In this document: piece by piece, positions 5,225 to 32,000 of the stretch
How the letters are laid out: the number at the start of each line of letters is the position of its first letter
Numbering within the stretch: the first letter of the stretch is position 1
From: Flavobacteriaceae bacterium
GTDB lineage: Bacteria > Bacteroidota > Bacteroidia > Flavobacteriales > Flavobacteriaceae
NCBI GenBank assembly: GCA_965224465.1
Contig: OZ245049.1
Span: 840,001 to 872,000 of the forward strand
Length of the DNA stretch: 32,000 bases
Direction of reading: 5' to 3'
Program-made: the position numbers and the translations under genes
Notes under the pieces: model-generated
The model's database searches: none
Told to the model about the DNA's origin: nothing
What the model saw: only the letters and a program-made list of their open reading frames with translations

Positions 5225-5600
5225 CTATTCTTTTAAATATAGATGACAAAATTCAGCGTTTTATACAAAGTGAACAATCCCTAAATAGTGTGATTTTAAC
5301 AAAGTCATACATCCCCTAAAAAGGGGATATAAATAGCGCATAAACAATCTCCTCTTCTAAAAAACAAAACAGTCAATAATCTCTATAAACGATGATATAT
5401 AGTCGTTTACAGGAACAAAACAAGAACTACATTAACCAGAATTTGTCTAAATAAACATAGCCAAACCGTATTTTGTTGTAAAAACATAGTTAATGAACAA
5501 ATCATTGTTAAATCAAAGATAAAACCTACACTATTTATACACGTTTAATACAACAAAAACAGAATTTTAAGAGGTACTATTTGAACTATTCACCAAGCTT

Positions 5601-5760
5601 ATACCAAATACATTTTCAAGTGACGGTTTAGAAATGAAATTATTTTTTGTTATAGCTAGGCGAAAAACCTAAGGACATCCTTAGGCTACCCTTCTGTTTT
5701 TCAACAACGTTATAACGTAAAACAAACTATTTATATAGACCATGTTTGATTGTAATTGGT
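5601..5760 (-). repeat. copy A of a ~160-nt structured intergenic element (inverted relative to copies B-D)
   Basis: The reverse complement aligns block by block with 25943..26100, 26581..26740 and 31709..31858. Shared blocks are CCAATTACAATC, ATATAAA, GTTTGTTTTACGTT, GTTGTTGAAAAACAGAA, CGCCTAGCTA, TTCATTTCTAAACCGTCACTTG-AAATGTA and TTGGTAT. It lies in a 953-bp ORF-free region. Confidence 0.75.
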
Positions 5761-6177
5761 ATGGCTCATGAGTAAGAGATTTATTAGAAAGATTATTTTC
5801 TAGCGCAAGGGAATACCTAAAGGAATAACTCCCTTAATGGGCGTAAAAACCACTCACAAAACTAGACCGTACGTTATTGGAAACCTACACCTCATATCCT
5901 TTGTATATATGCGTTATAAAAAACATATATCCGCACATATATACCTCTTTCCAAACATATTTCAGAACTAGGTACTTACACTACAAAAAAAATGAATTTT
6001 AGAGTAAAAAAAACTTTAAATCCGTATTATAGACCGCTAAAATTAGCTGAATTGAATTCAAAAAAAAAAGTTAACAACCATTAAAATATGAATACATCAA
6101 ACCTCTAAATTTAAGAAAAAAAGCAACAAGCCCTATTTCAAAGTCCTTTATAATAAAAAATTATTATTTATAGCTGC

Positions 6178-10369: not shown

Positions 10370-10389
10370 ATTTAAATTTATTATTGGTA

Positions 10390-10397
10390 CAAAAATA
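10390..10397 (-). promoter_or_regulatory. candidate Bacteroidota -7 box (TATTTTTG = TAnnTTTG) for the nadC operon
   Basis: The plus strand CAAAAATA at 10390..10397 gives TATTTTTG on the minus strand, 21 nt upstream of the nadC ATG at 10369. No clear -33 TTG was found. Confidence 0.4.
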
Positions 10398-10433
10398 ACT
10401 TTTTGTTTTAAAACTCCTAGCCTAAATCTTTAG

Positions 10434-10441
10434 TATCTTTG
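10434..10441 (+). promoter_or_regulatory. candidate Bacteroidota -7 box (TATCTTTG) for the rlmH operon
   Basis: It matches TAnnTTTG only 4 nt before the rlmH ATG at 10446. That would imply a leaderless or very short-leader mRNA, or that the true start or promoter lies elsewhere. Confidence 0.3.
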
Positions 10442-10445
10442 TCTT

Positions 10446-10919
10446 ATGAATATAAAACTATTGGTTATAGGTAAAACCGACGATAAAAATCTACTACAAC
10501 TCATCCAGATCTACGAAAATAGACTCAAACACTATATCAAATTTGACATTGAAATAATCCCCGATATTAAAAATGTAAAAAACCTTAGTGAAGTGCAACA
10601 AAAAGAGAAGGAAGGGAATTTAATTCTAAAAAAAATGGAGGCTTCTGACCAATTGGTATTGCTAGATGAAAATGGAAAAACGTTTAAGTCTACTGAATTC
10701 GCACAATTTTTACAAAAAAAAATGAATAGTGGGATTAAACAATTGGTCTTGGTTATCGGAGGTCCTTATGGTTTTTCTGAAGCTGTCTACAAAAAAGCAG
10801 TTGGAAAAATTTCTTTATCCAACATGACATTTTCACATCAAATGATTCGTTTGATACTTGTAGAGCAATTGTACAGAGGATTTACCATTTTAAAAAACGA
10901 ACCTTATCATCATGAATAA
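10446..10919 (+). CDS. rlmH: 23S rRNA (pseudouridine1915-N3)-methyltransferase, SPOUT family
   Basis: 157-aa ORF. LVLVIGGPYGFSEAVYKKAVGKISLSNMTFSHQMIRLILVEQLYRGFTILKNEPYH is the RlmH C-terminal signature. Confidence 0.9.
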   Translation: MNIKLLVIGKTDDKNLLQLIQIYENRLKHYIKFDIEIIPDIKNVKNLSEVQQKEKEGNLILKKMEASDQLVLLDENGKTFKSTEFAQFLQKKMNSGIKQLVLVIGGPYGFSEAVYKKAVGKISLSNMTFSHQMIRLILVEQLYRGFTILKNEPYHHE

Positions 10920-11502
10920 AATAGAAATTGTATTTGCTACCAATAATGCCAACAAACTTAAAGAAGTACAAGCGATGTTACCCCCACATATTAAAGTACT
11001 AAGTTTAAAGGACATCCATTGTTTGGAAGAAATCCCTGAAACTTCGGACACCTTAGAAGGAAATGCCATCTTAAAAGCCAACCATGTTACAAAAAACTAT
11101 GGTTACAATTGTTTTGCTGATGACACAGGACTGGAAGTAAACGCCTTAGACAATGCTCCTGGTGTCTATTCTGCTCGCTATGCAGGAGAAGATAACAATG
11201 CGGAGAACAACATGCAAAAACTGTTAGATAATCTAAATGACACCCTTGATAGGAAAGCACAGTTTAGAACGGTGATTGCTTTAAATTTAGAGGAGAAACA
11301 ATTTCTTTTTGAAGGGCTCTGTACTGGTGAAATTCTTCAAAAAAAACAAGGAAATGCTGGCTTTGGCTATGACCCTATATTTATGCCTTCCAACTACTGT
11401 ATCTCATTTGCGGAGATGGACATGGAAACCAAAGGAAAAATTAGCCATCGCGGATTATCCGTACAAAAGCTAGTGACTTATTTAAACACAATACTTACAT
11501 AA
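10912..11502 (+). CDS. rdgB: non-canonical purine NTP (dITP/XTP) pyrophosphatase, RdgB/HAM1 family
   Basis: 196-aa ORF with IVFATNNANKLKEV, FADDTGLEVNALDNAPGVYSARYAG, GFGYDPIF and KGKISHRG motifs. Its ATG overlaps the rlmH stop (ATGAATAA). Confidence 0.9.
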   Translation: MNKIEIVFATNNANKLKEVQAMLPPHIKVLSLKDIHCLEEIPETSDTLEGNAILKANHVTKNYGYNCFADDTGLEVNALDNAPGVYSARYAGEDNNAENNMQKLLDNLNDTLDRKAQFRTVIALNLEEKQFLFEGLCTGEILQKKQGNAGFGYDPIFMPSNYCISFAEMDMETKGKISHRGLSVQKLVTYLNTILT

Positions 11503-13324: not shown

Positions 13325-13429
13325 ATGCGATTATACCTGTTATTTACTCTGCAGATAATTGGATCGTTAAATATAAAATGAAAACAATGCCATTCCTCAA
13401 TTTTCTAGTCTAGACAAAAACAATTCTGA

Positions 13430-14998
13430 TTACCTATTTAATACTTCTGGGTTTACAATTACAAATTCGGTACGTCTATTTTTTTGGTGTTCTCCTTTTG
13501 AACATGTTACATTATTCCTACAATTATTAGTCAACATGCGTTCACCATAGCCTTTTCCTGATATTCGATTTGCGTCAATACCTTTTTTTACGATATAAGA
13601 AACGGTTGAATTTGCTCTTCTGCTAGAAAGCTCTATATTATAATAATCATTTCCTCTAGCATCCGTATGTGAGCCTGACTCAATAATTAGGTTTGGGTAT
13701 TTATTCATAACTGCGATCACTTTTTGAAGTTCTATCGCAGCATCTGGACGTATATTATCTTTATCAAAATCAAAATAAATAGGATTAATATTTATTAAAA
13801 TTCTACCTTCCTCCTGTATAAACTCTAGTTTACTTAAATTTAGGTTGACAATAATTCCTTTTGTATCCTTTTTTGCAAAAGACTCAAAACTGGGAGAGTA
13901 CGATTCTTTTTCTGCAAAAACTATATAATCCTTTTCGCAATCAATAGTAAACTTATACTCATTATTTGCTGTGTTTTTTTGCTGATCGACACGTGTTCCA
14001 TCCGCAGTTCTTAAGGTAATGAGTGCTCCTAGTATAGGCTTATTCGTTTTATTATCTACAATATTTCCAGTTACAAATTGCGTACATTTCTTTTCAACTT
14101 CTTTTTCAACTACAAATTTATAGATATCATCATCTCCTACTCCATTCTTACGGTTGGAAGTAAAGTAGCCTGTATTCAGCGCTTCCTTAAAAATAAAATT
14201 AAAATCATCTGAAACTCCATTTATCACTTCTCCAAGATTGAGTACCGTACTATAATTAGTTGCTGCTTTACTTACAAAAATATCCAAACCTCCATGCCCA
14301 GAATGTCCATCAGAAGAAAAATATAAGTCCCCATTTCTACTGATAAAAGGAAATGTATCATTTCCTTCTGTATTGATCGTACTTCCCAAATTTACTGGCG
14401 TCCCATAGCTAGCATCAGGATTAATATCCACATAATATATATCAGACAATCCGTAAGTTCCATCTCTATCTGAAGCAAAATACAACTTAGTTTGAGCTGC
14501 GTTTAATGTAGGATGTGCTGTAGAAAACAAATCACTATTAAATGGTAGTTCCTCTATATCTGTCCATGCTCCATTTACTTTTATTACTTTAAATATTTTT
14601 AATCTATTCAGTCCTTCGTTATCCGTTTTAAATTTCCCATGAAAATAATTATTCCTCGTAAAATACATGGTATTCCCATCTGCAGTAACAGCCACCGTAG
14701 ATTCGTGGTATTTTTTATTCACTACACGTTTCATCTTTTTTGTTATCCCTCGTTTTGTATCATACGTAAATAATTGATAAAACGGACGTTTCTTTCCCTT
14801 TACAAAATGACGCCTATTAATAACTATTGAAGAATCTCTATTAGAAGAAAAAACGATTCCATCTTCATAAAATGAAGCTCCAAAATCAGAAACTTTTGTA
14901 TTAAAACTAGCTAATTCGATGGCGTATTTATTTTTTATTTCTTGTGCTTGACAAGTCATACAAAAAAGCAAAGCGAGTGTGATGTAACATATTTTCAT
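13430..14998 (-). CDS. OmpA-family protein with TolB-like (PD40) beta-propeller repeats
   Basis: The C-terminal OmpA-like peptidoglycan-binding domain reads IYFDFDKDNIRPDAAIELQKV...SHTDARGNDYYNIELSSRRANS...GKGYGE. PD40-like repeats are present (YFASDRDGTYGLSDIYY, YFSSDGHSGHGGLDIF, YFTSNRKNGVGDDDIY). I prefer the start at internal M21 (MKICYITLALLFCMTCQAQ, ATG at 14998). The 15058 start drawn in the ORF track would overlap the PorP/SprF gene by 50 nt. Confidence 0.85.
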   Translation of the reverse strand: MKICYITLALLFCMTCQAQEIKNKYAIELASFNTKVSDFGASFYEDGIVFSSNRDSSIVINRRHFVKGKKRPFYQLFTYDTKRGITKKMKRVVNKKYHESTVAVTADGNTMYFTRNNYFHGKFKTDNEGLNRLKIFKVIKVNGAWTDIEELPFNSDLFSTAHPTLNAAQTKLYFASDRDGTYGLSDIYYVDINPDASYGTPVNLGSTINTEGNDTFPFISRNGDLYFSSDGHSGHGGLDIFVSKAATNYSTVLNLGEVINGVSDDFNFIFKEALNTGYFTSNRKNGVGDDDIYKFVVEKEVEKKCTQFVTGNIVDNKTNKPILGALITLRTADGTRVDQQKNTANNEYKFTIDCEKDYIVFAEKESYSPSFESFAKKDTKGIIVNLNLSKLEFIQEEGRILININPIYFDFDKDNIRPDAAIELQKVIAVMNKYPNLIIESGSHTDARGNDYYNIELSSRRANSTVSYIVKKGIDANRISGKGYGERMLTNNCRNNVTCSKGEHQKNRRTEFVIVNPEVLNR

Positions 14999-15008
14999 AG
15001 TATCATTT

Positions 15009-15929
15009 TTAGAAGAAACGTGGCGAAACCAAGTTTGTTTTTGTGTTAAACAATTCAATTCTCAAAAATACCTCATGTGATCCAGAGTCATAATTCACTA
15101 ATGCAGTAGTGTCCCAATCATAAGCATATCCAATCATAAGGTTTTCATTTATTTGAAAACCAGCCATAGCACTAAGAGCTGCACTCCATCTATAAGCAAG
15201 TCCTAGTCTGAACTTTTCATGGAATAATGCATTCAAAGACAGGTCTATTTGCAATGGAGCACCTGCTACATATTTTGTTAATAAAGCTGGCTTTAATTTG
15301 GTGTTTGCACTTATATCAAATACATACCCCGCAATCAAATAATAATTCATTCGTTCTTTTGCTATACTAGAAACTATCGGACTACCATCTTTATAATGTT
15401 CGGTTTCTAATATATTAGGCACAGACAATCCTAAATAGTAATTCGGAGTGTGATAATACAATCCAACACCAAAATTAGGAGTAAATCTATTCTCAATATT
15501 ATATGCATAAGGATCTTCTTGATCACCAATTGTCAATTTAGAAAAATCTACATTTAGCATATTAAGGACTCCTTTTAATCCAAATGCTAGCTTCCCTTTT
15601 TCAGAAACGGGTATGGTATAAGATACATCTATATTTAAGTATTGTTCTGTAGCTACCCCCAATTTATCATTTACAAAAGAAAAACCAAGCCCAATTTTAC
15701 TCCTAGAAAAAGGCGTATGAATAGCAAATGTTTGCGTTTGAGGAGCTCCATCCAAGCCTACCCATTGTGAACGATGTAAAGCAAGTATGCTCGTGACCCC
15801 TCTAGACCCTGCATAGGCAGGATTTATCCCCACTGTATTATACATATACTGCGTATATTGTGCATCTTGCTGTGAAAAAACATCGCAAAAACTCAATAGT
15901 ATAGCAATTAAAATTATTAATTTTCTCAT
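15009..15929 (-). CDS. PorP/SprF-family type IX secretion system membrane protein
   Basis: 306-aa ORF whose N-terminus FSQQDAQYTQYMYNTVGINPAYAGSRG is the hallmark of PorP/SprF (TIGR03519-type) proteins. It lies directly downstream of a type-B CTD cargo gene, as in the SprB/SprF paradigm. Confidence 0.9.
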   Translation of the reverse strand: MRKLIILIAILLSFCDVFSQQDAQYTQYMYNTVGINPAYAGSRGVTSILALHRSQWVGLDGAPQTQTFAIHTPFSRSKIGLGFSFVNDKLGVATEQYLNIDVSYTIPVSEKGKLAFGLKGVLNMLNVDFSKLTIGDQEDPYAYNIENRFTPNFGVGLYYHTPNYYLGLSVPNILETEHYKDGSPIVSSIAKERMNYYLIAGYVFDISANTKLKPALLTKYVAGAPLQIDLSLNALFHEKFRLGLAYRWSAALSAMAGFQINENLMIGYAYDWDTTALVNYDSGSHEVFLRIELFNTKTNLVSPRFF

Positions 15930-15978
15930 AGTATTATTTTTTAAATCGAATAGAAATATTCCTACTGCGCTGTTTGTG

Positions 15979-18900
15979 TTATCTATTTACATATAAATGC
16001 CCTGCTTTCTTCACTACCTTGTTCGTATCTGTATTGGTATACACTAAAATATAGAAATACGTTCCTACAGGTAATTTCTTACTAGCCTCTATGGTCATTC
16101 TACCTTCTGAAACCCCTCGAAACACATTATTATCTGAACCATACGATTTAGTTTCGTATACCAAAACTCCCCATCTATTATATATTTCCATCGTATTTTT
16201 CGGGTGAGATTGTATGCCTGTGATGTACAAGAAATCATTCTTTCCATCCCCATTAGGTGTTACTAAATTATGTACAATAATATCACAACTATCTATATCT
16301 AAATAATTAAGTATTCCGTCACTATCACAATCTCCTTCCTGTGTTTCTTCTGCCGTAGAAATCCCATCATTATCATCATCATTATCTAGATAATTAGGAA
16401 TCCCATCATTATCTGTATCATCATCATCTGGATTTCCATTATTATTTAAATCTTCATCCATCGTAGATATGCCATCTGCATCACAGTCTGTTTGAGCAGT
16501 CACATCTACCGAAATATCCTCTCCAATAAAATCACATGCTTCTTTAGGATTCGTACCTTTAGAAATTTCTATAACATCTAAAACACCATCACCATCACAA
16601 TCCATTTCTGATATAATAGGCTCACTTATGTCTTCTACACGATATGAACATGGCTGATTAGGATCTGTTCCGTTTGCTATTTCTATATGATCTAACACGC
16701 CGTCTCCATCTGTATCCAGAAGATTATTTGCAACTACAATTTTTACCGTAGCTGTATCACAATTCTCTGGACTTACTCCATTTTCACAAATCTTATATTC
16801 GACTTCATAAGTACCAGAAGGCGTTCCTTCGGCAATGGTAATTGTGCCATCAGTATTTAAAGTCAGTCCGCTTGGAACAGTCACTCCAGATAAGGTAACT
16901 TCTCCTGAATCTGTTCCTAGCACAACAGGTTTTCCGTCTAAAGTATCATTCTTGGTGATGTCTTTTGTTCTTTCCCCTACTTTAATTGGAGTGGTACTAA
17001 AATCATCATCTGTAGCAATTATTGGATTTACAACTACAACTTTTACTGTAGCCGTGTCACAATTTACTGGACTTATTCCATTTTCACAAATCTTATATTC
17101 AACTTCATAAGTTCCTGAAGGCGTTCCTTCGGAAACAGTAATTGTGCCATCAGTATTTAAAGTCAGTCCACTTGGAACAGTCACTTCGGATAAGGTAACT
17201 TCTCCTGGGTCTGTCCCCAGTACAATAGCTATTCCGTCTAAGGTGTCATTATCTGTGATGTCTGCAGTGCTTTCCCCTCCTGTAATTGGAGTCGCACTAT
17301 AATCATCATCTGTAGCAACTATTGGATTTGCAACTACAATTGTCACTGTAGCTGTATCACAATTCACTGGATTTGCTCCATTTTCGCAAATCTTATATTC
17401 AACTTCATAAGTTCCTGAAGGCGTTCCTTCGGAAATGGTAATTGTGCCATTTGTATTTAAAGTCAGTCCGCTTGGAACAGTCACTTCAGATAAGGTAACT
17501 TCTCCGGGGTCTGTCCCCAGTACAACAGCTATTCCGTCTAAGGTGTCATTATCTGTGATGTCTGCTGTGCTTTCTCCTCCTGTAATTGGAGTGGCGCTAT
17601 AATCATCATCTGTAGCAACTATTGGATTTTTAACTACAATTTTTACCGTAGCTGTGTCACAATTCACTGGATTTGCTCCATTTTCACAAATCTTATATTC
17701 AACTTCATAAGTCCCAGAAGGCGTTCCTTCGAAAACGGTAATTGTGCCATCAGTATTTAAAGTCAGTCCGCTTGGAACAGTCACTTCGGATAAGGTAACT
17801 TCTCCTGGGTCTGTTCCCAGTACAACAGCTATTCCGTCTAAGGTATCATTATCGGTGATGTCTGCTGTGCTTTCTCCTCCTGTAATTGGAGTGGCGCTAT
17901 AATCATCATCTGTAGCAACTATTGGATTTTTAACTACAATTTTTACCGTAGCTGTGTCACAATTCACTGGATTTGCTCCATTTTCACAAATCTTATATTC
18001 AACTTCATAAGTCCCAGAAGGCGTTCCTTCGAAAACGGTAATTGTGCCATCAGTATTTAAAGTCAGTCCGCTTGGAACAGTCACTTCAGATAAGGTAACT
18101 TCTCCGGGGTCTGTCCCCAGTACAACAGCTATTCCGTCTAAGGTGTCATTATCTGTGATGTCTGCTGTGCTTTCTCCTCCTGTAATTGGAGTGGCGCTAT
18201 AATCATCATCTGTAGCAACTATTGGATTTTTAACTACAATTTTTACCGTAGCTGTGTCACAATTCACTGGATTTGCTCCATTTTCACAAATCTTATATTC
18301 AACTTCATAAGTCCCAGAAGGCGTTCCTTCGAAAACGGTAATTGTGCCATCAGTATTTAAAGTCAGTCCGCTTGGAACAGTCACTTCAGATAAGGTAACT
18401 TCTCCGGGGTCTGTCCCCAGTACAACAGCTATTCCGTCTAAGGTGTCATTATCTGTGATGTCTGCTGTGCTTTCCCCTCCTGTAATTGGAGTCGCACTAT
18501 AATCATCATCTGTAGCAACTATTGGATTTACAACTACAATTTTTACCGTAGCTGTGTCACATTTTTCTGGATTTGCTCCATTTTCACAAATCTTATATTC
18601 AACTTCATAAGTTCCTGAAGGCGTTCCTTCGAAAACGGTAATTGTGCCATCAGTATTTAAAGTCAGTCCGCTTGGAACAGTCACTTCAGATAAGGTAACT
18701 TCTCCGGGGTCTGTCCCCAGTACAACAGCTATTCCGTCTAAGGTATCATTATCAGTGATGTCTGCAGTGCTTTCCCCTCCTGTAATTGGAGTCGCACTAT
18801 AATCATCATCTGTAGCAACTATTGGATTTACAACTACAATTTTTACCGTAGCTGTGTCACAATTCACTGGATTTGCTCCATTTTCACAAATCTTATATTC

Positions 18901-21657
18901 AACTTCATAAGTTCCTGAAGGCGTTCCTTCGAAAACGGTAATTGTGCCATCAGTATTTAAAGTCAGTCCGCTTGGAACAGTCACTTCAGATAAGGTAACT
19001 TCTCCGGGGTCTGTCCCCAGTACAACAGCTATTCCGTCTAAGGTATCATTATCAGTGATGTCTGCAGTGCTTTCCCCTCCTGTAATTGGAGTCGCACTAT
19101 AATCATCATCTGTAGCAACTATTGGATTTACAACTACAATTTTTACCGTAGCTGTGTCACAATTCACTGGATTTGCTCCATTTTCACAAATCTTATATTC
19201 AACTTCATAAGTTCCTGAAGGAGTTCCTTCGGCAACGGTAATTGTGCCATCTGTATTTAAAGTCAATCCACTTGGAACAATCACTTCGGATAAGGTAACT
19301 TCTCCTGGGTCTGTCCCCAGTACAATAGCTATTCCGTCTAAGGTGTCATTATCTGTGATGTCTGCTGTGCTTTCTCCTCCTGTAATTGGAGTCGCACTAT
19401 AATCATCATCTGTAGCAACTATTGGATTTGCAACTACAATTTTTGCCGTAGCCGTATCACAATTCACTGGATTTGCTCCATTTTCGCAAATCTTATATTC
19501 AACTTCATAAGTTCCTGAAGGCGTTCCTTCGGAAATGGTAATTGTGCCATTTGTATTTAAAGTCAGTCCGCTTGGAACAGTCACTTCGGATAAGGTAACT
19601 TCTCCTGGGTCTGTTCCCAGTACAATAGCTATTCCGTCTAAGGTGTCATTATCAGTGATGTCTGCTGTGCTTTCCCCTCCTGTAATTGGAGTGGCGCTAT
19701 AATCATCATCTGTAGCAACTATTGGATTTGCAACTACAATTTTTGCCGTAGCCGTATCACAATTCACTGGATTTGCTCCATTTTCGCAAATCTTATATTC
19801 AACTTCATAAGTCCCAGAAGGCGTTCCTTCGAAAACGGTAATTGTGCCATCAGTATTTAAAGTCAGTCCGCTTGGAACAGTCACTTCAGATAAGGTAACT
19901 TCTCCGGGGTCTGTCCCCAGTACAATAGCTATTCCGTCTAAGGTATCATTATCTGTGATGTCTGCTGTGCTTTCTCCTCCTGTAATTGGAGTCGCACTAT
20001 AATCATCATCTGTAGCAACTATTGGATTTTCAACTACAATTTTTGCCGTAGCTGTATCACAATTCACTGGATTTGCACCATTTTCGCAAATTTTATATTC
20101 AACTTCATAAGTTCCTGAAGGCGTTCCTTCGGCAACGGTAATTGTGCCATCAGTATTTAATGTCAATCCACTTGGAACAGTCACTTCGGATAAGGTAACT
20201 TCTCCTGGGTCTGTTCCCAGTACAATAGCTATTCCGTCTAAGGTGTCATTATCTGTGATGTCTGCTGTGCTTTCCCCTCCTGTAATTGGAGTGGCACTAT
20301 AATCATCATCTGTAGCAACTATTGGATTTTCAACTACAATTTTTACCGTAGCTGTATCACAATTCACTGGATTTGCTCCATTTTCGCAAATTTTATATTC
20401 AACTTCATAAGTTCCTGAAGGCGTTCCTTCGAAAACGGTAATTGTTCCATCAGTATTTAAAGTCAATCCACTTGGAACAGTCACTTCGGATAAGGTAACT
20501 TCTCCTGGGTCTGTTCCCAATACAATAGCTATTCCGTCTAAGGTATCATTATCGGTGATGTCTGCTGTGCTTTCTCCTCCTGTAATTGGAGTCGCACTAT
20601 AATCATCAGCTGTAGCAACTATTGGATTTACAACTACAATTTTTACCGTAGCTGTGTCACAATTCACTGGATTTGCTCCATTTTCACAAATCTTATATTC
20701 AACTTCATAAGTTCCTGAAGGCGTTCCTTCGAAAACGGTAATTGTGCCATCAGTATTTAAAGTCAGTCCGCTTGGAACAGTCACTTCGGATAAGGTAACT
20801 TCTCCGGGGTCTGTCCCCAGTACAATAGCTATTCCGTCTAAGGTGTCATTATCTGTGATGTCTGCTGTGCTTTCTCCTCCTGTAATTGGAGTCGCACTAT
20901 AATCATCATCTGTAGCAACTATTGGATTTGCAACTACAATTTTTGCCGTAGCCGTATCACAATTCACTGGATTTGCTCCATTTTCGCAAATCTTATATTC
21001 AACTTCATAAGTCCCAGAAGGCGTTCCTTCGAAAACGGTAATTGTGCCATCTGTATTTAAAGTCAATCCACTTGGAACAGTCACTTCGGATAAGGTAACT
21101 TCTCCTGGGTCTGTCCCCAGTACAATAGCTATTCCGTCTAAGGTGTCATTATCGGTGATGTCTGCTGTGCTTTCCCCTCCAGTAATTGGAGTCGCACTAT
21201 AATCATCAGCTGTAGCAACTATTGGATTTGCAACTACAATTTTTGCCGTAGCCGTATCACAATTCACTGGATTTGCACCATTTTCGCAAATCTTATATTC
21301 AACTTCATAAGTTCCTGAAGGAGTTCCTACGGCAACGGTAATTGTGCCATCAGTATTTAAAGTCAGTCCGCTTGGAACAGTCACTTCGGATAAGGTAACT
21401 TCTCCTGGGTCTGTTCCCAGTACAATAGCTATTCCGTCTAAGGTGTCATTATCGGTGATGTCTGCTGTGCTTTCCCCTCCAGTAATTGGAGTCGCACTAT
21501 AATCATCATCTGTAGCAACTATTGGATTTGCAACTACAATTTTTGCCGTAGCCGTATCACAATTCACTGGATTTGCTCCATTTTCGCAAATCTTATATTC
21601 AACTTCATAAGCTCCATTTTCCTGAAGGCGTTCCTTCGAAAACGGTAATTGTTCCAT
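15979..21657 (-). CDS. largest ORF of the adhesin locus: 17 tandem 100-aa repeats + thrombospondin-type-3-like repeats + gliding-motility-associated (type B) T9SS C-terminal domain
   Basis: 1892-aa ORF. The repeat is NPIVATDDDYSATPITGGESTADITDNDTLDGIAIVLGTDPGEVTLSEVTVPSGLTLNTDGTITVFEGTPSGTYEVEYKICENGANPVNCDTATVKIVV. D-rich DxDxDG motifs are present (DTDGDGVLD, DCDGDGVLD, DTDNDGIPNYLDNDDDNDGIS). The C-terminus VTPNGDGKNDFLYI...IYNRWGVLVYE...LPVGTYFYIL...GHLYVNR matches the CHU_C/TIGR04131-type CTD. The first ~17 aa (MEQLPFSKERLQENGA) are out-of-frame read-through. Confidence 0.85.
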   Translation of the reverse strand: MEQLPFSKERLQENGAYEVEYKICENGANPVNCDTATAKIVVANPIVATDDDYSATPITGGESTADITDNDTLDGIAIVLGTDPGEVTLSEVTVPSGLTLNTDGTITVAVGTPSGTYEVEYKICENGANPVNCDTATAKIVVANPIVATADDYSATPITGGESTADITDNDTLDGIAIVLGTDPGEVTLSEVTVPSGLTLNTDGTITVFEGTPSGTYEVEYKICENGANPVNCDTATAKIVVANPIVATDDDYSATPITGGESTADITDNDTLDGIAIVLGTDPGEVTLSEVTVPSGLTLNTDGTITVFEGTPSGTYEVEYKICENGANPVNCDTATVKIVVVNPIVATADDYSATPITGGESTADITDNDTLDGIAIVLGTDPGEVTLSEVTVPSGLTLNTDGTITVFEGTPSGTYEVEYKICENGANPVNCDTATVKIVVENPIVATDDDYSATPITGGESTADITDNDTLDGIAIVLGTDPGEVTLSEVTVPSGLTLNTDGTITVAEGTPSGTYEVEYKICENGANPVNCDTATAKIVVENPIVATDDDYSATPITGGESTADITDNDTLDGIAIVLGTDPGEVTLSEVTVPSGLTLNTDGTITVFEGTPSGTYEVEYKICENGANPVNCDTATAKIVVANPIVATDDDYSATPITGGESTADITDNDTLDGIAIVLGTDPGEVTLSEVTVPSGLTLNTNGTITISEGTPSGTYEVEYKICENGANPVNCDTATAKIVVANPIVATDDDYSATPITGGESTADITDNDTLDGIAIVLGTDPGEVTLSEVIVPSGLTLNTDGTITVAEGTPSGTYEVEYKICENGANPVNCDTATVKIVVVNPIVATDDDYSATPITGGESTADITDNDTLDGIAVVLGTDPGEVTLSEVTVPSGLTLNTDGTITVFEGTPSGTYEVEYKICENGANPVNCDTATVKIVVVNPIVATDDDYSATPITGGESTADITDNDTLDGIAVVLGTDPGEVTLSEVTVPSGLTLNTDGTITVFEGTPSGTYEVEYKICENGANPEKCDTATVKIVVVNPIVATDDDYSATPITGGESTADITDNDTLDGIAVVLGTDPGEVTLSEVTVPSGLTLNTDGTITVFEGTPSGTYEVEYKICENGANPVNCDTATVKIVVKNPIVATDDDYSATPITGGESTADITDNDTLDGIAVVLGTDPGEVTLSEVTVPSGLTLNTDGTITVFEGTPSGTYEVEYKICENGANPVNCDTATVKIVVKNPIVATDDDYSATPITGGESTADITDNDTLDGIAVVLGTDPGEVTLSEVTVPSGLTLNTDGTITVFEGTPSGTYEVEYKICENGANPVNCDTATVKIVVKNPIVATDDDYSATPITGGESTADITDNDTLDGIAVVLGTDPGEVTLSEVTVPSGLTLNTNGTITISEGTPSGTYEVEYKICENGANPVNCDTATVTIVVANPIVATDDDYSATPITGGESTADITDNDTLDGIAIVLGTDPGEVTLSEVTVPSGLTLNTDGTITVSEGTPSGTYEVEYKICENGISPVNCDTATVKVVVVNPIIATDDDFSTTPIKVGERTKDITKNDTLDGKPVVLGTDSGEVTLSGVTVPSGLTLNTDGTITIAEGTPSGTYEVEYKICENGVSPENCDTATVKIVVANNLLDTDGDGVLDHIEIANGTDPNQPCSYRVEDISEPIISEMDCDGDGVLDVIEISKGTNPKEACDFIGEDISVDVTAQTDCDADGISTMDEDLNNNGNPDDDDTDNDGIPNYLDNDDDNDGISTAEETQEGDCDSDGILNYLDIDSCDIIVHNLVTPNGDGKNDFLYITGIQSHPKNTMEIYNRWGVLVYETKSYGSDNNVFRGVSEGRMTIEASKKLPVGTYFYILVYTNTDTNKVVKKAGHLYVNR

Positions 21658-21874
21658 CAGTATTTAAAGTCAATCCACTTGGAACAGTCACTTCGGATAA
21701 GGTAACTTCTCCTGGGTCTGTCCCCAGTACAATAGCTATTCCGTCTAAGGTGTCATTATCGGTGATGTCTGCTGTGCTTTCCCCTCCAGTAATTGGAGTC
21801 GCACTATAATCATCAGCTGTAGCAACTATTGGATTTGCAACTACAATTTTTGCCGTAGCCGTATCACAATTCAC
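21605..21874 (-). pseudogene. adhesin fragment (about 0.9 repeat unit) between the 56-bp and 7-bp insertions
   Basis: 89-aa ORF with the same repeat sequence. Its apparent Met is a GTG inside the VNCDTAT motif. It ends out of frame (GTPSGKWSL) after the inserted CTCCATT at 21612..21618. Confidence 0.7.
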
Positions 21875-22875
21875 TGGATTTGCACCATTTTCGCAAATCT
21901 TATTTTTGCCGTAGCCGTATCACAATTCACTGGATTTGCACCATTTTCGCAAATCTTATATTCAACTTCATAAGTTCCTGAAGGAGTTCCTACGGCAACG
22001 GTAATTGTGCCATCAGTATTTAAAGTCAGTCCGCTTGGAACAGTCACTTCGGATAAGGTAACTTCTCCTGGGTCTGTTCCCAGTACAATAGCTATTCCGT
22101 CTAAGGTGTCATTATCGGTGATGTCTGCTGTGCTTTCCCCTCCAGTAATTGGAGTCGCACTATAATCATCATCTGTAGCAACTATTGGATTTGCAACTAC
22201 AATCCCAGAAAGTTTTACCGTAGTTGTATCACAATTCACTGGATTTGCTCCATTTTCGCAAATCTTATATTCAACTTCATAAGTCCCAGAAAGTGTCCCT
22301 TCGGCAACGGTAATTGTTCCATCAGTATTTAAAGTCAGTCCACTTGGAACAGTCACTTCGGATAAGGTAACTTCTCCTGGGTCTGTCCCCAGTACAACAG
22401 CTATTCCGTCTAAGGTATCATTATCGGTGATGTCTGCTGTACTTTCCCCTCCTGTAATTGGAGCGCCACTATAATCATCATCTGTAGCAACTATTGGATT
22501 TGAAACTACAATTTTTGCCGTAGCTGTATCACAATTTTCTGGACTTGCTCCATTTTCACAAATCTTATATTCAACTTCATAAGTTCCTGAAGGCGTTCCT
22601 TCGGCAACGGTAATTGTGCCATCAGTATTTAAAGTCAGTCCGCTTGGAACAGTCACTCCAGACAAGGTAACCTCTCCTGGATTTGTTCCCAGTACAATAG
22701 CTATTCCGTCTAAGGTGTCATTATCGGTGATGTCTGCTGTGCTTTCCCCTCCAGTAATTGGAGTCGCACTATAATCATCATCTGTAGCAACTATTGGATT
22801 TGCAACTACAATTTTTACCGTAGTTGTATCACAATTCACTGGATTTGCAAATCTTATATTCATCCATTTTCGCAA
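21871..22875 (-). pseudogene. adhesin fragment (about 3 repeat units) between the 14-bp and 56-bp insertions
   Basis: 334-aa ORF of repeat sequence. It begins with out-of-frame residues MRKWMNIRF and ends with AKIRFAKMVQIQ. It also contains an in-frame 9-bp insertion (CCCAGAAAG, 22204..22212) giving TTVK-LSG-IVVANP. Confidence 0.7.
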
Positions 22876-23450
22876 ATCTTATATTCAACTTCATAAGTCC
22901 CAGAAAGTGTCCCTTCGGCAACCGTAATTGTGCCATCAGTATTTAAAGTCAGTCCGCTTGGAACAGTCACTTCGGATAAGGTAACTTCTCCTGGGTCTGT
23001 CCCCAGTACAACAGCTATTCCGTCTAAGGTATCATTATCGGTGATGTCTGCTGTGCTTTCCCCTCCAGTAATTGGAGTCGCACTATAATCATCATCTGTA
23101 GCAACTATTGGATTTGCAACTACAATTTTTACCGTAGTTGTATCACAATTCACTGGATTTGCTCCATTTTCGCAAATCTTATATTCAACTTCATAAGTCC
23201 CAGAAAGTGTCCCTTCGGCAACCGTAATTGTGCCATCAGTATTTAAAGTCAGTCCGCTTGGAACAGTCACTTCGGATAAGGTAACTTCTCCTGGGTCTGT
23301 CCCCAGTACAACAGCTATTCCGTCTAAGGTATCATTATCGGTGATGTCTGCTGTACTTTCCCCTCCTGTAATTGGAGCGCCACTATAATCATCAGCTGTA
23401 GCAACTATTGGATTTGAAACTACAATTTTTGCCGTAGCTGTATCACAATT
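22860..23450 (-). pseudogene. adhesin fragment (about 2 repeat units) between the 5-bp and 14-bp insertions
   Basis: The frame is open from just below the TAA at 23451..23453 down to the stop at 22860. I hand-checked NCDTATAKIVVSNPIVATAD in frame with the track ORF 22860..23270, whose Met is a GTG within VTVPSGL. Confidence 0.65.
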
Positions 23451-25516
23451 TTATTTTCTGGACTTGCTCCATTTTCACAAATCTTATATTCAACTTCATA
23501 AGTTCCTGAAGGCGTTCCTTCGGCAACGGTAATTGTGCCATCAGTATTTAAAGTCAGTCCGCTTGGAACAGTCACTCCAGACAAGGTAACCTCTCCTGGA
23601 TTTGTTCCCAGTACAACGGGATTTTCGTCTAAGGTATCATTATCGGTGATGTCTATTGTGCTTTCTCCTCCTGTAATTGGAGTGGCACTATAATCATCAT
23701 CTTTGGCATCTATTTGAGGAATACAACTAGGAATATTATCATAAGGTTTTACGGTATCTATTGTCACAGAAACAATTCCAGAATCAACAAATGTTTCTAA
23801 ACTATCATAAAGTCCATTATCCCCCACAGGCCCAGAGCTCTCAGTTCCTGCTTCTTCAGCATCAGAACAGCTGTCATTATCAGAGTCGAGATCAACACTT
23901 TTTGTACATGTGGGATCCACCTCATTTAAACTAAAACCATCAACAAGAACAACAGTAGGCGCCTCTAAATAAAACTCATATTTAACAGAAGAAGAAGTTG
24001 CTTCAAAAACAATTCTATATTTTTTCCAGTGAGGATTGTATAGAGTTGATACATCTGGACTTTGAGTAAAATCGGCTGTTGAACTAGGGTCTGTTGAAAA
24101 ATTAGTATAGACCGTTTCATCTAAGGGAGTCTGGTATAGCACATTTACTCCTGTACCACTTCCTTGATCAACAAAACCATAACGCACATGATGTATATCG
24201 TAATCATATCCCTCATTTCCAGAGTATCCATAATTAGGCAAGGTCCCCATTTCAAATTCTAATACATATTGACTTCCAATAGTTAGTCCACTTATATTAT
24301 TCGAAATTGCTTCATCAGCTAGTGAAAAAATCAAAAAACCACCACCACTATCAGATGGTATAATATTTATTTTATAAAAGCCTCCTGTTCTTGGATCTCC
24401 AATACTTGAGCCCGCTAAATACTGAGCTTCAGACCAGTCAGGGGTTCCTGTTGTAAAGTCCCATCCTTGATAAAGCCCAATAGGACTTGTACCATTAAAA
24501 GAATAACTACTTAAATGTGATTTATACTTAGAATTCCCATCTTCAGAGATTGCTTTCGTTGATATTTCGGTATCTGAGTAAAAAAAATCACCGTTGGTTA
24601 ATAAATCTATTGTTGGACATTCTACTACATCAGGAATCCCATCATTATCATCATCTATATCTATAACATCTGAAATTCCATCATTATCAAAATCTGAAAT
24701 AACATTGAATTGGGACGTATCATAACTATAACAATTTGCTACGGCATGGTAAAAAGCAGCATAATAAATGCCAACCGGCGCAGCATTTGAGCTCCCAAGT
24801 ATGTTTGTTTGACTCACAGGTAATGCCGTATGCCAACTTAAGCTAGTACCACTAGGACCTGCATTTGAAGAAATAGTTGTTAAATCAAATGTAGTTACTG
24901 CGCTCGCAGACCCAACATTTGAGGATAAAACTGGCGCATTTACACCTGCTTCACAATTATAACAAGTTGGAGTCCCTATAGAAACAGCATCTATAATAGA
25001 TTGAACTCCTGAATCCACACCTGCTGCATCTGCTCCTTTTAATTTTAAATAAGCATACGCATCGTTTTCAGATGAAGACAACGTATACGTAAATTCCTGA
25101 AAAGTTGAATAATTACCACTTCCATAGAAATTATCCATTAAAACAGGCGTTGTAAAACTTATCCCATCTATACTAAAAGACACTAAATAGCTATCAAGAT
25201 CAGCTGAACTATTAACTGCTTTAGCAGTAATCGTAACTTTAGCACCTTGTGTGAAGGTTGTGGTAAATGATGCAGCCGTATAGGTTACCGACCCATACCA
25301 TTCTTCAGGACCATCTCCATCTGGAGCACCATGTAATGTTGCCGCAGATCCACCTCCTGTAACATACTGGGTTTCTAAATAAGACCCATGAGAACATTGT
25401 GCCTGTATACTACTCATAAGCATTATAGAAAACAACCACATTAAAAAACCCTTTAAAACAAAATTGTTCGTATTTGATAAACATTTATATTTCATACCAT
25501 GATTGTTTTTATACAT
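23420..25516 (-). CDS. N-terminal fragment of the adhesin: signal peptide, unique ~590-aa region, first repeat unit
   Basis: 698-aa ORF with a hydrophobic signal (LMWLFSIMLMSSIQAQ). Alternative starts are at 25495 or 25438. It has a TSP3-like DFDNDGISDVIDIDDDNDGIPD and then the first repeat, DAKDDDYSATPITGGEST...EVEYKICENGASPEN. After that the frame is lost at the ATTTT duplication. Confidence 0.8.
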   Translation of the reverse strand: MYKNNHGMKYKCLSNTNNFVLKGFLMWLFSIMLMSSIQAQCSHGSYLETQYVTGGGSAATLHGAPDGDGPEEWYGSVTYTAASFTTTFTQGAKVTITAKAVNSSADLDSYLVSFSIDGISFTTPVLMDNFYGSGNYSTFQEFTYTLSSSENDAYAYLKLKGADAAGVDSGVQSIIDAVSIGTPTCYNCEAGVNAPVLSSNVGSASAVTTFDLTTISSNAGPSGTSLSWHTALPVSQTNILGSSNAAPVGIYYAAFYHAVANCYSYDTSQFNVISDFDNDGISDVIDIDDDNDGIPDVVECPTIDLLTNGDFFYSDTEISTKAISEDGNSKYKSHLSSYSFNGTSPIGLYQGWDFTTGTPDWSEAQYLAGSSIGDPRTGGFYKINIIPSDSGGGFLIFSLADEAISNNISGLTIGSQYVLEFEMGTLPNYGYSGNEGYDYDIHHVRYGFVDQGSGTGVNVLYQTPLDETVYTNFSTDPSSTADFTQSPDVSTLYNPHWKKYRIVFEATSSSVKYEFYLEAPTVVLVDGFSLNEVDPTCTKSVDLDSDNDSCSDAEEAGTESSGPVGDNGLYDSLETFVDSGIVSVTIDTVKPYDNIPSCIPQIDAKDDDYSATPITGGESTIDITDNDTLDENPVVLGTNPGEVTLSGVTVPSGLTLNTDGTITVAEGTPSGTYEVEYKICENGASPENKIVIQLRQKL

Positions 25517-25587
25517 AGGATTATATACTGCTCCTACTCGTTAATAATTATAAAAAAAACTGCTGTTTTCCTTTTCTTTTTCCTTTT

Positions 25588-25595
25588 CAAAATTA
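25588..25595 (-). promoter_or_regulatory. candidate -7 box (TAATTTTG) for the adhesin gene
   Basis: The plus strand CAAAATTA gives TAATTTTG (TAnnTTTG) on the minus strand, 72 nt upstream of the ATG at 25516. No convincing -33 TTG was found. Confidence 0.35.
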
Positions 25596-25711
25596 TATCT
25601 TAAATTAAAATGCGCTCTTAACTTGTACTAGTATGCACATATCTATTTCTAAAACAGATACATTCATAATAATGATATTCACAAATAATGAGGTACGGGG
25701 GTTAATTCTTT

Positions 25712-25830
25712 ATATAATTGGTCTTGTTAAAAACAGAGAGATCGCTAAAGGTGCTTCATAGCTTCTACCAAGCCATTGCAAATAGATATAGTAGTTAATC
25801 TCATAAAAACAAACAGCTAACTTCTAATTA
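25712..25830 (+). repeat. degenerate relic (fifth copy) of the ~160-nt element
   Basis: Patchy collinear matches to the element. CTTGTTAAAAACAGAGAGATCGCTAAAGG matches GTTGTTAAAAAATAGAACGATAGCTTAGG. CATAGCTTCTACCAAGCCATT matches GATAGCTTAGGCTACCATCCATT. TAGTTAATCTCATAAAAACAAACAG matches TAGTTAAAATAAAAAACAG. The 5' third is missing. Confidence 0.35.
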
Positions 25831-25942
25831 ATACACCCCATCTAAAAAAGAAAGAAGTAAAAATAAAAAAACAGTACACTATTCCCTTAAACTAACACTA
25901 CACACTGTGATAATCTCATATATTTGTAACCTAAATTATACT

Positions 25943-26100
25943 AATTACAATCCAAAATGTTTGATATAAATAGTTTGTTTTACGTTCTAGTGTTGTTAAA
26001 AAATAGAACGATAGCTTAGGCTACCATCCATTTTTCGCCTAGTTAAAATAAAAAACAGTTCCATTTCTAAACCTACACTTGTAAATGTATAGTTGGTATC
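25943..26100 (+). repeat. copy B of the ~160-nt structured intergenic element
   Basis: The sequence is AATTACAATCCAAAATGTTTGATATAAATAGTTTGTTTTACGTTCTAGTGTTGTTAAAAAATAGAACGATAGCTTAGGCTACCATCCATTTTTCGCCTAGTTAAAATAAAAAACAGTTCCATTTCTAAACCTACACTTGTAAATGTATAGTTGGTATC. It aligns along its full length with copies A, C and D. Confidence 0.8.
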
Positions 26101-26580
26101 ACTCAAAATTTCAGCAACACAAACTAGTAACGCCATCATATATGGACGTTATAAATCAATATCTATCCTATTCCTAAAACAAAGGAACTATTATATTTTC
26201 AATGGAGTATTTCGTTATTTTTAATATTCGAATTATCAATTTTTACATGTTCAGATATTGCAAACAAAATACAACACACATCACCTATATCGAATAATTA
26301 ATAAAGTTTGGGGGGGAAGTAACAATTAATATTTAATATTTAATTGTAGTACTAAGTTATGACTGTATTCCTTTTTAGCTCAACATCAATTCGATCAATT
26401 CGATCAATTCTACATTTAACGCATTGATTTCGAAAAGCAAACAATCAACTTATGTGCAATATAAACAAAATATTTAAACAATCAAAATATAATCGATTAT
26501 TTTTCAATACATTACACTAAAAAAAGGTCTTTTTCATAAAAGGATATTGGTAAAAACATTGATCAGGATCTATATTTACA

Positions 26581-26740
26581 CCAATTACAATCCAAAATAA
26601 CCGATATAAAAAGTTTGTTTTTACGTTCTAGTATTTTTGAAAAACAGAACGATAGCTAAGGCTATCCATCCATTTGTCGCCTAGCTAAAACAAAAGATAA
26701 TTCCATTTCTAAACCGTCACTTGGAAATGTAGTTGGTATA
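26581..26740 (+). repeat. copy C of the ~160-nt structured intergenic element (best-preserved predicted fold)
   Basis: It has the terminal pair CCAATTACA / TGTAGTTGG. Its hairpins are CGTTCT/AGAACG, TAGCT(A)AGGC/GCCTAGCTA and CATTTCTA/TTGGAAATG. It is in the same orientation as copy B, 480 bp downstream of it. Confidence 0.8.
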
Positions 26741-26939
26741 ACAATCAAATTTTTAAATTAATTCAATAAAAATCAGACGACAGGATATACGCATTCCTGC
26801 ACTTTTTTTATATATTTGGCTTTTTAACCATCCGTTCAATAAAACCAGACCTAAGGCGTTATTGAATACATTAACAAATAATTTGTCTGTTCCTACTTCA
26901 TCCATGGTATGAATAAGAGCCTTTTAAAAAAATCGATAT

Positions 26940-27953
26940 ATGAAAATATTTTACTCCCTTATTTTATCCGTGTTTTTCCTCAGTTGTGGAAGCAAGAACA
27001 TAATAGCTACTTCTCCTACAGAAACCAACATAGATAATGCGGAAAAATTCGCAAATACTATCACCAATACAGACCTTAAAAACTATTTAACTACCATTGC
27101 TTCCGATGATTTTGAAGGAAGAAAAACTGGAGAAGAAGGTCAAAAAAGGGCCGCTAAATATTTAAGCGATTTCTATCTAAAAAACAACATCAAAAGCCCT
27201 TTATCTAGTGGGAGTTATTTACAAATCATCCCTAAAGATTTCTTTAAAGGACGCTCTAATTATGATTCAGAAAACGTATTGGCTTTTATAGAAGGAACCG
27301 ACAAGAAAGAAGAAATCATTGTGATTTCTGCTCACTATGATCACTTAGGAATTAAAGGAAGAAAAGTTTATAATGGAGCGGACGATGATGGGTCTGGAAC
27401 TGCTGCTATTATGGAAATAGCCCAAGCGTTCAAAACTGCTGAACAACAAGGCAAAGGGCCTAGAAGATCCTTGTTATTCTTACATGTAACAGGAGAAGAA
27501 ATAGGTCTTTTTGGCTCAAAGTATTATGTTCAAAACCCTGTTTTTCCTTTAAAAAATACCGTGACTAATTTAAACATAGACATGGTAGGACGTGTAGACA
27601 AAATGCATAAGAAAAATCCCAATTTTGTGTATTTAATTGGTTCCGAAAAAATAAGTAAAGAATTGAAATATATTTCAGAGCAAGCCAACGGGGAATACAC
27701 CCACTTAGAATTGGACTATCGATATGACGATGAGAATGATCCGAATCGCTTTTACTACAGATCTGACCATTACAATTTTGCGAAAAATGGGATTCCAATT
27801 ATATTCTATTTCAATGGAACTCACAAAGACTATCACAAAGAGAGTGATACCGTTGATAAAATAAATTTTGAGATTTTAGAAAAACGAACTAAACTTATTT
27901 TTTATACAGCTTGGAAATTAGCCAATAGAGACGAACGCCTAAAAATAGACTAA
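26940..27953 (+). CDS. M28-family metallopeptidase (aminopeptidase) lipoprotein
   Basis: 337-aa ORF with lipoprotein signal (FFLSCGS). It has ISAHYDHLG, GADDDGSGTAAIMEIAQAF and HVTGEEIGLFGSKYY, the zinc-ligand blocks of M28 peptidases. Confidence 0.85.
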   Translation: MKIFYSLILSVFFLSCGSKNIIATSPTETNIDNAEKFANTITNTDLKNYLTTIASDDFEGRKTGEEGQKRAAKYLSDFYLKNNIKSPLSSGSYLQIIPKDFFKGRSNYDSENVLAFIEGTDKKEEIIVISAHYDHLGIKGRKVYNGADDDGSGTAAIMEIAQAFKTAEQQGKGPRRSLLFLHVTGEEIGLFGSKYYVQNPVFPLKNTVTNLNIDMVGRVDKMHKKNPNFVYLIGSEKISKELKYISEQANGEYTHLELDYRYDDENDPNRFYYRSDHYNFAKNGIPIIFYFNGTHKDYHKESDTVDKINFEILEKRTKLIFYTAWKLANRDERLKID

Positions 27954-31583: not shown

Positions 31584-31708
31584 ATGGAAATAGATCCACG
31601 TCAGCTTTCTTTTTAAAACCATCCTTAGTAGAACAAATTATAAAGCATTGTTCCCTTAAATTTTTTAACAAAGGAACTGAAATTTTAAGAGCAGAACAAT
31701 ATATAATA
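31584..31708 (+). pseudogene. Crp/Fnr-like (cyclic-nucleotide-binding) gene remnant, frameshifted and truncated by element copy D
   Basis: ATG at 31584 gives MEIDPRQLSF then a stop. The +2 frame continues LKPSLVEQIIKHCSLKFFNKGTEILRAEQYI, which resembles the N-terminus of flavobacterial Crp/Fnr regulators. One extra T in the T5 run at 31610..31614 would join the two frames. The reading frame runs into element copy D and stops inside it. Confidence 0.4.
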
Positions 31709-31858
31709 TCAATTACATTCCAAACTGACCGATATAAAAATTTATTTTACGTTCTAGCGTTGTTAAAAAATAGAACGATAGCTAATATCCATCCATTTTC
31801 CGGCTAGCTAAAAAAATAATTCCATTTTTAAACCTTCACTTGGAAATGTATTTAATAT
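31709..31858 (+). repeat. copy D of the ~160-nt structured intergenic element
   Basis: The sequence is TCAATTACATTCCAAACTGACCGATATAAAAATTTATTTTACGTTCTAGCGTTGTTAAAAAATAGAACGATAGCTAATATCCATCCATTTTCCGGCTAGCTAAAAAAATAATTCCATTTTTAAACCTTCACTTGGAAATGTATTTAATATAA. It aligns along its full length with copies A-C. Confidence 0.75.
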
Positions 31859-32000
31859 AACACTCCCCTAGCATGGTTATCAATCATGCTGTAACCCGAA
31901 ATCGTTAAAAATTCATACGTCTATTATATGATTTTTTTAAGCTCTTTCCAAAAGGCCCCATCTACTTTTGCTAGCTTGAGTTTTTTTAAATAAACGTGCT

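Follow-up and report, generated by a model that had tools for sequence, protein, structure and literature searches.

Several copies of a non-coding unit of about 160 nt lie scattered through a 32,000-nt stretch of Flavobacteriaceae DNA, referred to here as the window, and the question raised by this locus is what kind of unit they represent. The original prediction offered three answers: a MITE-like mobile element, a dispersed sRNA gene family or a regulatory cassette. We judge it probable that the copies belong to a new family of palindromic MITE-like elements carried by a small clade of marine Flavobacteriaceae. The family itself is undescribed; the kind of element is ordinary, most likely a MITE comparable to ERIC or Correia.

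A profile HMM built from the aligned copies and run without filters (nhmmer) recovered all of them by large margins. In agreement with the number first proposed, it places four full-length copies in the 32,000-nt window at E = 1e-40 to 1.5e-49: copy A at 5597-5765 on the minus strand (E = 6e-48) and, on the plus strand, copy B at 25936-26102 (E = 7e-45), copy C at 26575-26743 (E = 1.5e-49) and copy D at 31704-31863 (E = 1e-40). When the ends of the element are set as TACC...GGTA, copies A (5602..5761, minus strand), B (25939..26098, plus strand) and C (26579..26738, plus strand) each measure 160 nt and copy D (31707..31857, plus strand) measures 151 nt. The sequence blocks that the original prediction listed as shared are present in the copies, whose pairwise identity is 77-84% by BLAST and 81-86% across the aligned core. 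With the 300-nt tandem repeats of the adhesin gene masked, these four copies are the only dispersed repeats in the window, and no solo element ends were found there. Similarity between copies ends at the element boundaries in BLAST comparisons and the flanks are unrelated, which upholds the view of the copies as a discrete unit. Two elements of the original picture had to be given up. A degenerate relic had been placed at about 25712..25830; the best that nhmmer offers in that region is 25721-25776 on the plus strand, at 5.7 bits and E = 2, and BLAST gives no match. With this relic unsupported, the copies stacked beside the adhesin gene number two (B and C, between that gene and an M28 peptidase gene) rather than three.

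The anatomy of the unit is that of an extended palindrome. Imperfect terminal inverted repeats of about 23-24 nt are found in all ten copies now known, those of related genomes included, with TACCAATTACAATCCAAAATGAC at one end and GTCACTTGGAAATGTATTTGGTA at the other; the inverted repeat had been noticed from the outset, although at a length of 9 nt. Copy C exemplifies the family at its 5' end (CACCAATTACAATCCAAAATAAC, 26579..26601, plus strand) and carries GTCACTTGGAAATGTAGTTGGTA at its 3' end (26716..26738, plus strand), and in the alignment the 3' inverted repeat of copy B carries a 2-nt insertion. The symmetry extends throughout the element, such that the profile also matches the reverse strand of each copy over its full length, at E-values as low as 8e-9. 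Set against its own reverse complement, the consensus forms 59 Watson-Crick matches, 16 transversion mismatches and 8 transition mismatches, and on the strand complementary to the orientation first chosen (hereafter the complementary strand) seven of these eight are G-U and one is A-C. Within the copies, 93% of cells are paired, compared with 41-48% when the partners are slid. For single copies the predicted folding energy is -33 to -44 kcal/mol, and z-scores range from -3.3 to -4.6 whichever strand is taken (-39.3 kcal/mol and z = -3.3 for copy A).

Most copies are 151-160 nt long, with variants of 73 nt and 193 nt. Nine of the ten have a G+C content of 27-33%, whereas that of the window is 35%; the exception, also at 35%, is L005, an insertion-bearing copy from the NORP167 MAG. 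Conserved coding capacity is lacking, as had been noted before: among the nine full-length copies, eight have a longest stop-free stretch of 22-36 aa and L005 has one of 66 aa, and no reading frame is common to the copies. The L005 copy (L005:4823-5025) has two segments inserted in its interior, about 22 and 12 nt long, of which the latter forms a small G+C-rich hairpin (CCGACCCGTCGG); the MAG sequence includes N calls.

At the center of the element lies an A-tract, a GATAGC/GCTATC stem and a T-tract. In copy C the resulting hairpin (26641..26666, minus strand) reads GATAGC-CTTA-GCTATC followed by GTTCTGTTTT and was recognized as terminator-like by a terminator scan. Copy B holds the best terminator-like version in the window (25996..26029, minus strand), in which 10 pairs (GGATGGTAGC / GCTATCGTTC) are directly followed by TATTTTTT. 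The scan flags both of these centers on the complementary strand, where 0.3 sites would be expected by chance in that region. The copies have no promoter motif in common. TAnnTTTG, the -7 motif of Bacteroidota, occurs in just two of 18 strand-copies, at different places, and is thus conserved on neither strand, and a scan for sigma-70-type promoters returned no more sites than in shuffled sequence.

These observations bear directly on the notion that the copies are independently transcribed, paralogous sRNA genes of about 160 nt. Such a family would be expected to be structured, intergenic, multi-copy and conserved between species, as the element is. Nevertheless, we hold this explanation to be very unlikely. 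It is at odds with the sporadic and shifting occurrence of the -7 motif, and with a divergence that is uniform along the element and leaves no conserved single-stranded seed region; moreover, it would leave unexplained both the direct repeats at the flanks and a derivative that consists of ends alone, to which we return below. Rfam lends it no assistance either. At gathering thresholds there were zero matches in the whole window, including to Flavo-1 and the other Bacteroidota motifs that the original prediction had singled out for comparison, and at E up to 10 the sole match in 25600-26950 was a chance one to snoR12 (E = 1.6). A literature search on MITEs in Flavobacteria likewise found no paper on a repeat family in this clade, and the initial failure to put a name to the element is thereby borne out.

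The distribution of the element is narrow. An exact-pattern scan across one genome per GTDB species located it in three Flavobacteriaceae MAGs only, all from North Pond crustal fluids (NORP167, NORP150 and NORP129); the remaining five matches comprised the pattern alone, with no element. Six further copies in sister MAGs and metagenome scaffolds bring the total to ten in at least five Flavobacteriaceae genomes, so that the search in relatives suggested at the outset has been answered in the affirmative. Related copies are 78-90% identical. One of them, L039:9343-9509, was found without pattern bias while a syntenic locus was being inspected, and it is the single copy in about 160 kb of related DNA chosen irrespective of the element; the genome of a relative would therefore carry copies in the order of tens, and the window with its four is a local cluster. 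Beyond these genomes, exact patterns run against JGI metagenome contigs gave no match for a first pattern and five for a second, none of which was a true copy: all were short and comprised the pattern alone, and the two inspected fall within coding sequence. IMG/VR returned 14 matches, all to the 21-nt pattern alone, and plasmid and phage collections returned none. Two short contigs, L040 and L041, stop at the element end or a few bases from it, as is expected of a genomic repeat.

The genes that adjoin the copies have no common function. In the window, copy A lies between a porin gene and a LuxR-type regulator gene, copies B and C between the T9SS adhesin and M28 peptidase genes, and copy D between a glycosyltransferase gene and a Sua5-like gene. 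Copy D is situated about 66 nt 3' of the stop codon of this last gene, a Sua5/YrdC-like gene on the minus strand that was recognized by reverse-frame translation and synteny with L011 and whose reading frame extends past the end of the window. A Crp-like gene fragment that might have been split by copy D (31584-31706) was considered and rejected, as it contains an early stop codon and has no Pfam match even at E = 10. In the MAGs, the neighbors are genes for a histidine kinase and HlyIII, for GH130, for alkaline phosphatase and SbcD, for aminopeptidase P, and for sirohaem synthase and a hexapeptide transferase.

Comparison with relatives reveals several syntenic places at which the element is missing. 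L011, the nearest relative by synteny, shares the gene order and has an M28 peptidase that is 85% identical, and it possesses neither copies B, C and D nor the 13.4-kb island of adhesin, PorP/SprF and OmpA genes. When the intergenic region was compared with L011 by BLAST, similarity restarted at window position 26756, 18 nt past copy C, which places this copy at the right edge of the adhesin island. In L032 and L035 a giant gene is divergent from the M28 gene, as in the window, and no element copy is present; the association of copies with the giant adhesin is thus incidental. A second informative place is the interval between the histidine kinase and HlyIII genes. It holds a copy in both L009 and L039, whereas L038 and L042 show a gap of 90-95 nt and L046 has other small genes there; altogether the element is absent from it in four other relatives. 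Within the intergenic DNA of the adhesin-M28 and kinase-HlyIII intervals, no empty site could be defined at the nucleotide level, relatives of 78-85% protein identity not being alignable there. The stretch upstream of the HlyIII gene varies within the clade, as seen in L009, L039, L038, L042, L044 and L046. Depending on the genome it contains a gap of 90-95 nt, the repeat, or one or two small genes, encoding either proteins of 140 and 97 aa or a 161-aa DUF5763 protein; a CHASE3 kinase gene borders it except in L044, which has no kinase gene beside it.

The position of copies B and C might also call to mind an invertible DNA switch, in which a recombinase flips a promoter segment that controls surface proteins such as the giant adhesin. 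Inverted repeats do bracket some 115 bp, and two copies do occupy the divergent region between the adhesin and M28 peptidase genes. We nonetheless regard this as highly improbable, for none of the marks of an inverton, namely an internal promoter, a nearby recombinase and the occurrence of both orientations, was observed. The TAnnTTTG promoter motif is not conserved inside the element, the Pfam-scanned ORFs of the window contain no recombinase domain, and a single locus represented by three samples (L039, L040 and L041) occurs in one orientation. In addition, the majority of copies follow the 3' ends of housekeeping genes, no copy is present in relatives that share the adhesin/M28 arrangement, and the mismatches between the arms are identical in all copies, which means that they were inherited and not homogenised.

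The flanks of the element may bear a trace of insertion. As a general pattern, a T-W-A triplet adjoins TACC...GGTA on either side, and in five of the ten copies the two triplets constitute a perfect 3-nt direct repeat of TAA or TTA. The repeat is TAA...TAA in copy D (31704-31706 and 31858-31860), L009 and L039 and TTA...TTA in L002 and L010. In L010 the triplet on the upstream gene's side, TAA on the plus strand of the locus, is the stop codon of that gene. The remaining window copies have the triplets CCA (5762-5764) and TAA (5599-5601) for A, TTA and TCA for B, and TTA and TAA for C. The middle base is the same on both sides in six copies and complementary in one (p ~0.04, for n = 10 copies of which L009 and L039 may share ancestry). 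A 3-bp target duplication would give identical middle bases, and an extension of the stem would give complementary ones. Certain subgroups of the IS5 family and PIF/Harbinger elements typically duplicate 3 bp at TNA or TWA, and IS30-family elements of Bacteroides can likewise duplicate 3 bp; these groups are no more than a lead. PATEs derived from IS200/IS605 elements lack terminal inverted repeats and make no target duplication, each end having a subterminal hairpin of its own; such an origin does not agree with the true terminal inverted repeats, which pair across the whole unit, or with the direct-repeat flanks.

An internal-deletion derivative adds to this picture. In L010 a 73-nt version retains both ends, has lost the interior and is flanked by the TTA...TTA repeat. 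The copies otherwise relate to one another in a star-like manner at 78-90% identity, with L009 nearest to the consensus, and divergence from the consensus is approximately uniform along the element. No pair of copies exceeds 90% identity, and hence there is no sign of recent activity. Within the window, no transposase domain was detected in the ORFs scanned against Pfam, in line with the original prediction as far as these ORFs are concerned; the four ORFs from 8555 to 11502 were assigned by synteny with L011 alone. No transposase gene with matching ends was found in the window or in about 0.2 Mb of related DNA, and no extra end-like sequence adjoining an ORF was found in the window or the related loci.

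Conservation between species calls for closer consideration. Copies from different species resemble one another as much as do copies within one genome, whereas orthologous intergenic DNA is saturated, and this likeness requires that a master copy be conserved, that the element pass between relatives living together or that selection act to some degree. Selection is central to the proposal that the element is a host-selected, cis-acting RNA module, serving as a hairpin in 3'-UTRs or between cistrons or as a terminator for both directions, which was spread by recombination or by a transposition that ceased long ago and whose function, not mobility, explains its conservation. We consider this unlikely. 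In its favor there is an asymmetry of strands. The complementary strand of the consensus folds with 55 pairs at -24.6 to -26.1 kcal/mol, as against 33 pairs at -13.5 kcal/mol for the other strand, a difference that stems from the G-U nature, on that strand, of seven of the eight transition mismatches in the master palindrome. The same strand is co-directional with neighboring genes in all six MAG copies and in copy D, copy A being the sole exception: here alone the more stable RNA orientation runs antisense to the genes on both sides. Furthermore, by the rules of the terminator scan, five of nine copies have a terminator-like center on the complementary strand and three of nine on the other. 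Between species, copies are 85-90% identical amid flanks that cannot be aligned, and two species hold a copy in the same kinase-HlyIII interval.

The way in which the copies have changed argues in the opposite direction. At paired positions of the consensus, copy-specific changes comprise 22 to G-U, 22 to A-C and 27 transversions; pairing has been broken as often as it has been kept, and this looks like neutral decay. Covariation is marginal, with four compensated pairs and 93.0% paired cells compared with 92.3% in shuffles. Once restricted to the informative cases, that is copies between co-directional genes, the orientation bias amounts to just five of six (p ~0.1) and is suggestive only. 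The central stem is short, at 6 bp with three G-C pairs, the 73-nt derivative is wholly without the center, and the kinase-HlyIII interval is devoid of the element in the four other relatives already described. In L002 the element lies between a stop codon and a canonical strong terminator, and it is therefore not the terminator of that gene; probably it is co-transcribed. The terminator in question (L002:7753-7788, AAAGCCTC...GAGGCTTTTTT) directly follows the element, and some 170 nt further on an isolated end-like sequence, GTCATTTGGAAATTAATTTGATA (L002:7920-7942, four mismatches, nhmmer E = 0.41), may be the remnant of a second copy. A related and rather doubtful proposal combines function with mobility: the element would be a domesticated mobile terminator or 3'-UTR hairpin cassette, kept near-constant across several Flavobacteriaceae species by selection on the complementary-strand RNA and perhaps mobilized by a TWA-targeting type of transposase not yet linked to Bacteroidota MITEs.

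Returning to the MITE-like reading, the features of the unit match the definition of a prokaryotic MITE (PMC10969869; PMC3049150). The element is shorter than 500 bp and has neither a transposase nor any conserved coding capacity, it is bounded by terminal inverted repeats, it is AT-rich with a transcript predicted to form a stable stem-loop, and its copies are dispersed among unrelated flanks and vary in presence, L011, L038 and L042 being syntenic loci without copies. Of the three answers originally offered, the mobile element is the best fit, in view of the long terminal inverted repeats, the TAA/TTA direct repeats beside half of the copies, the 73-nt derivative, the unrelated contexts, the syntenic absences and the neutral-looking decay. 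The sRNA family and the regulatory cassette are unsupported, as there is no conserved -7 motif, the neighboring genes are functionally unrelated and covariation is marginal.

From this reading, in which the elements are non-autonomous, a mechanism may be sketched. A transposase encoded elsewhere in the genome, which for a MITE would be that of an autonomous IS sharing its ends, would bind both ends of the element, and insertion would take place at TWA sites (TAA or TTA) with duplication of 3 bp, after which the copies would decay neutrally. Wherever a copy comes to lie within a transcript, formation of a long RNA hairpin is predicted (-33 to -44 kcal/mol), and the complementary strand would fold the better of the two by virtue of its G-U pairs. 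The center of this putative hairpin (A-tract, stem of 6-10 bp and T-tract) is similar to a weak Rho-independent terminator that works in both directions, so that a copy could end or stabilize neighboring transcripts, as has been proposed for ERIC, Correia and SPRITE sequences (PMC10969869; PMC3049150). Such an effect would be no more than a plausible consequence of insertion.

The closest parallels are found among well-known repeats of other bacteria. ERIC, a 127-bp imperfect palindrome of Enterobacteriaceae and Vibrionaceae, shares with the element (130-160 bp) a whole-length imperfect palindrome, an intergenic and non-coding nature, tens of copies per genome, conservation between species at differing sites, and shorter and longer variants arising from internal deletions and insertions, and its predicted RNA hairpin has orientation-dependent effects (PMC10969869; PMC3049150). 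The two belong to different phyla and have no sequence similarity: when the copy nearest to the consensus was used as query, sensitive blastn gave no match in 5,426 complete genomes of E. coli, a species in which ERIC is present. They differ also at the flanks, where ERIC duplicates TA on insertion and the element displays a 3-nt TWA repeat. The Correia elements of Neisseria (CREE/NEMIS) are comparable in their length of about 100-156 bp, inverted repeats of about 23-26 bp, deletion variants and intergenic location. Their transcripts fold into long hairpins, as is predicted for the element, and these are cut by RNase III (PMC10969869; PMC3049150). Unlike Correia, the element shows no evident outward promoter and no evident IHF site. 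It is unrelated to Correia in sequence, and its copy number is apparently far lower.

SPRITE repeats resemble the element in being small, AT-rich, interspersed and terminator-like, in lying near gene 3' ends, and in that target duplication is not established and empty sites are lacking (PMC3049150). They are distinguished by ends that are merely AAAA/TTTT and by a long stem followed by a long U-rich tract, whereas the element has 23-nt inverted repeats and is terminator-like only in its short central stem. Nearest in taxonomy are BrickBuilt and other MITEs of Porphyromonas gingivalis, which like the element are found in Bacteroidota, strictly intergenic and non-autonomous (PMC10969869; PMC5771137). 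BrickBuilt is set apart by its description, as it is reported to carry promoters (PMC10969869), none of which is conserved in the element; the pattern scan, moreover, places the element in Flavobacteriaceae MAGs only.

The element would add one more MITE family to Bacteroidota, a phylum for which few have been described. It accounts for the four unusually long intergenic regions of the window and for the breaks in metagenome contigs at these sites in the clade. The profile can be used in annotation, so that the repeats are not mistaken for sRNA genes or regulatory leaders, and as a strain marker for the Flavobacteriaceae populations of North Pond. If the terminator or hairpin activity were real, the family would be an instance in which mobile DNA contributes the ends of transcripts to an AT-rich genome of the Bacteroidota. 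The understanding of how MITEs work is unchanged by this family.

The island beside copies B and C presents features of its own. It spans 13.4 kb (approximately 13325-26755) and comprises genes for an OmpA/PD40 protein, PorP/SprF and the giant adhesin together with a 1.4-kb non-coding stretch. It is missing between the ABC-transporter and M28 peptidase genes in L011 and L036, and in L032 and L035 a giant gene is present at its position. A hairpin on the plus strand at 26776-26810 (CAGGA...TCCTG and then a T-run) matches in position a terminator located just 3' of the ABC-transporter gene in L011, and in the window the island now parts this hairpin from that gene. The giant T9SS adhesin (15979-25516, minus strand) has 23 tandem repeats of 300 nt and a CHU_C secretion domain. 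It is broken into five consecutive ORFs (23420-25516, 22860-23270, 21871-22875, 21605-21874 and 15979-21657), with the breaks falling at repeat units whose spacing of 307, 356, 314 or 305 nt is not a multiple of three; the split gene is either a pseudogene or the product of an assembly error in the repeats. Lastly, the non-coding DNA between copies B and C contains a run of seven G residues (26310-26316) and a tandem repeat of CAATTCGAT in about 2.7 units (26387-26411), and these two sequences upstream of the adhesin are possible slippage-prone tracts.
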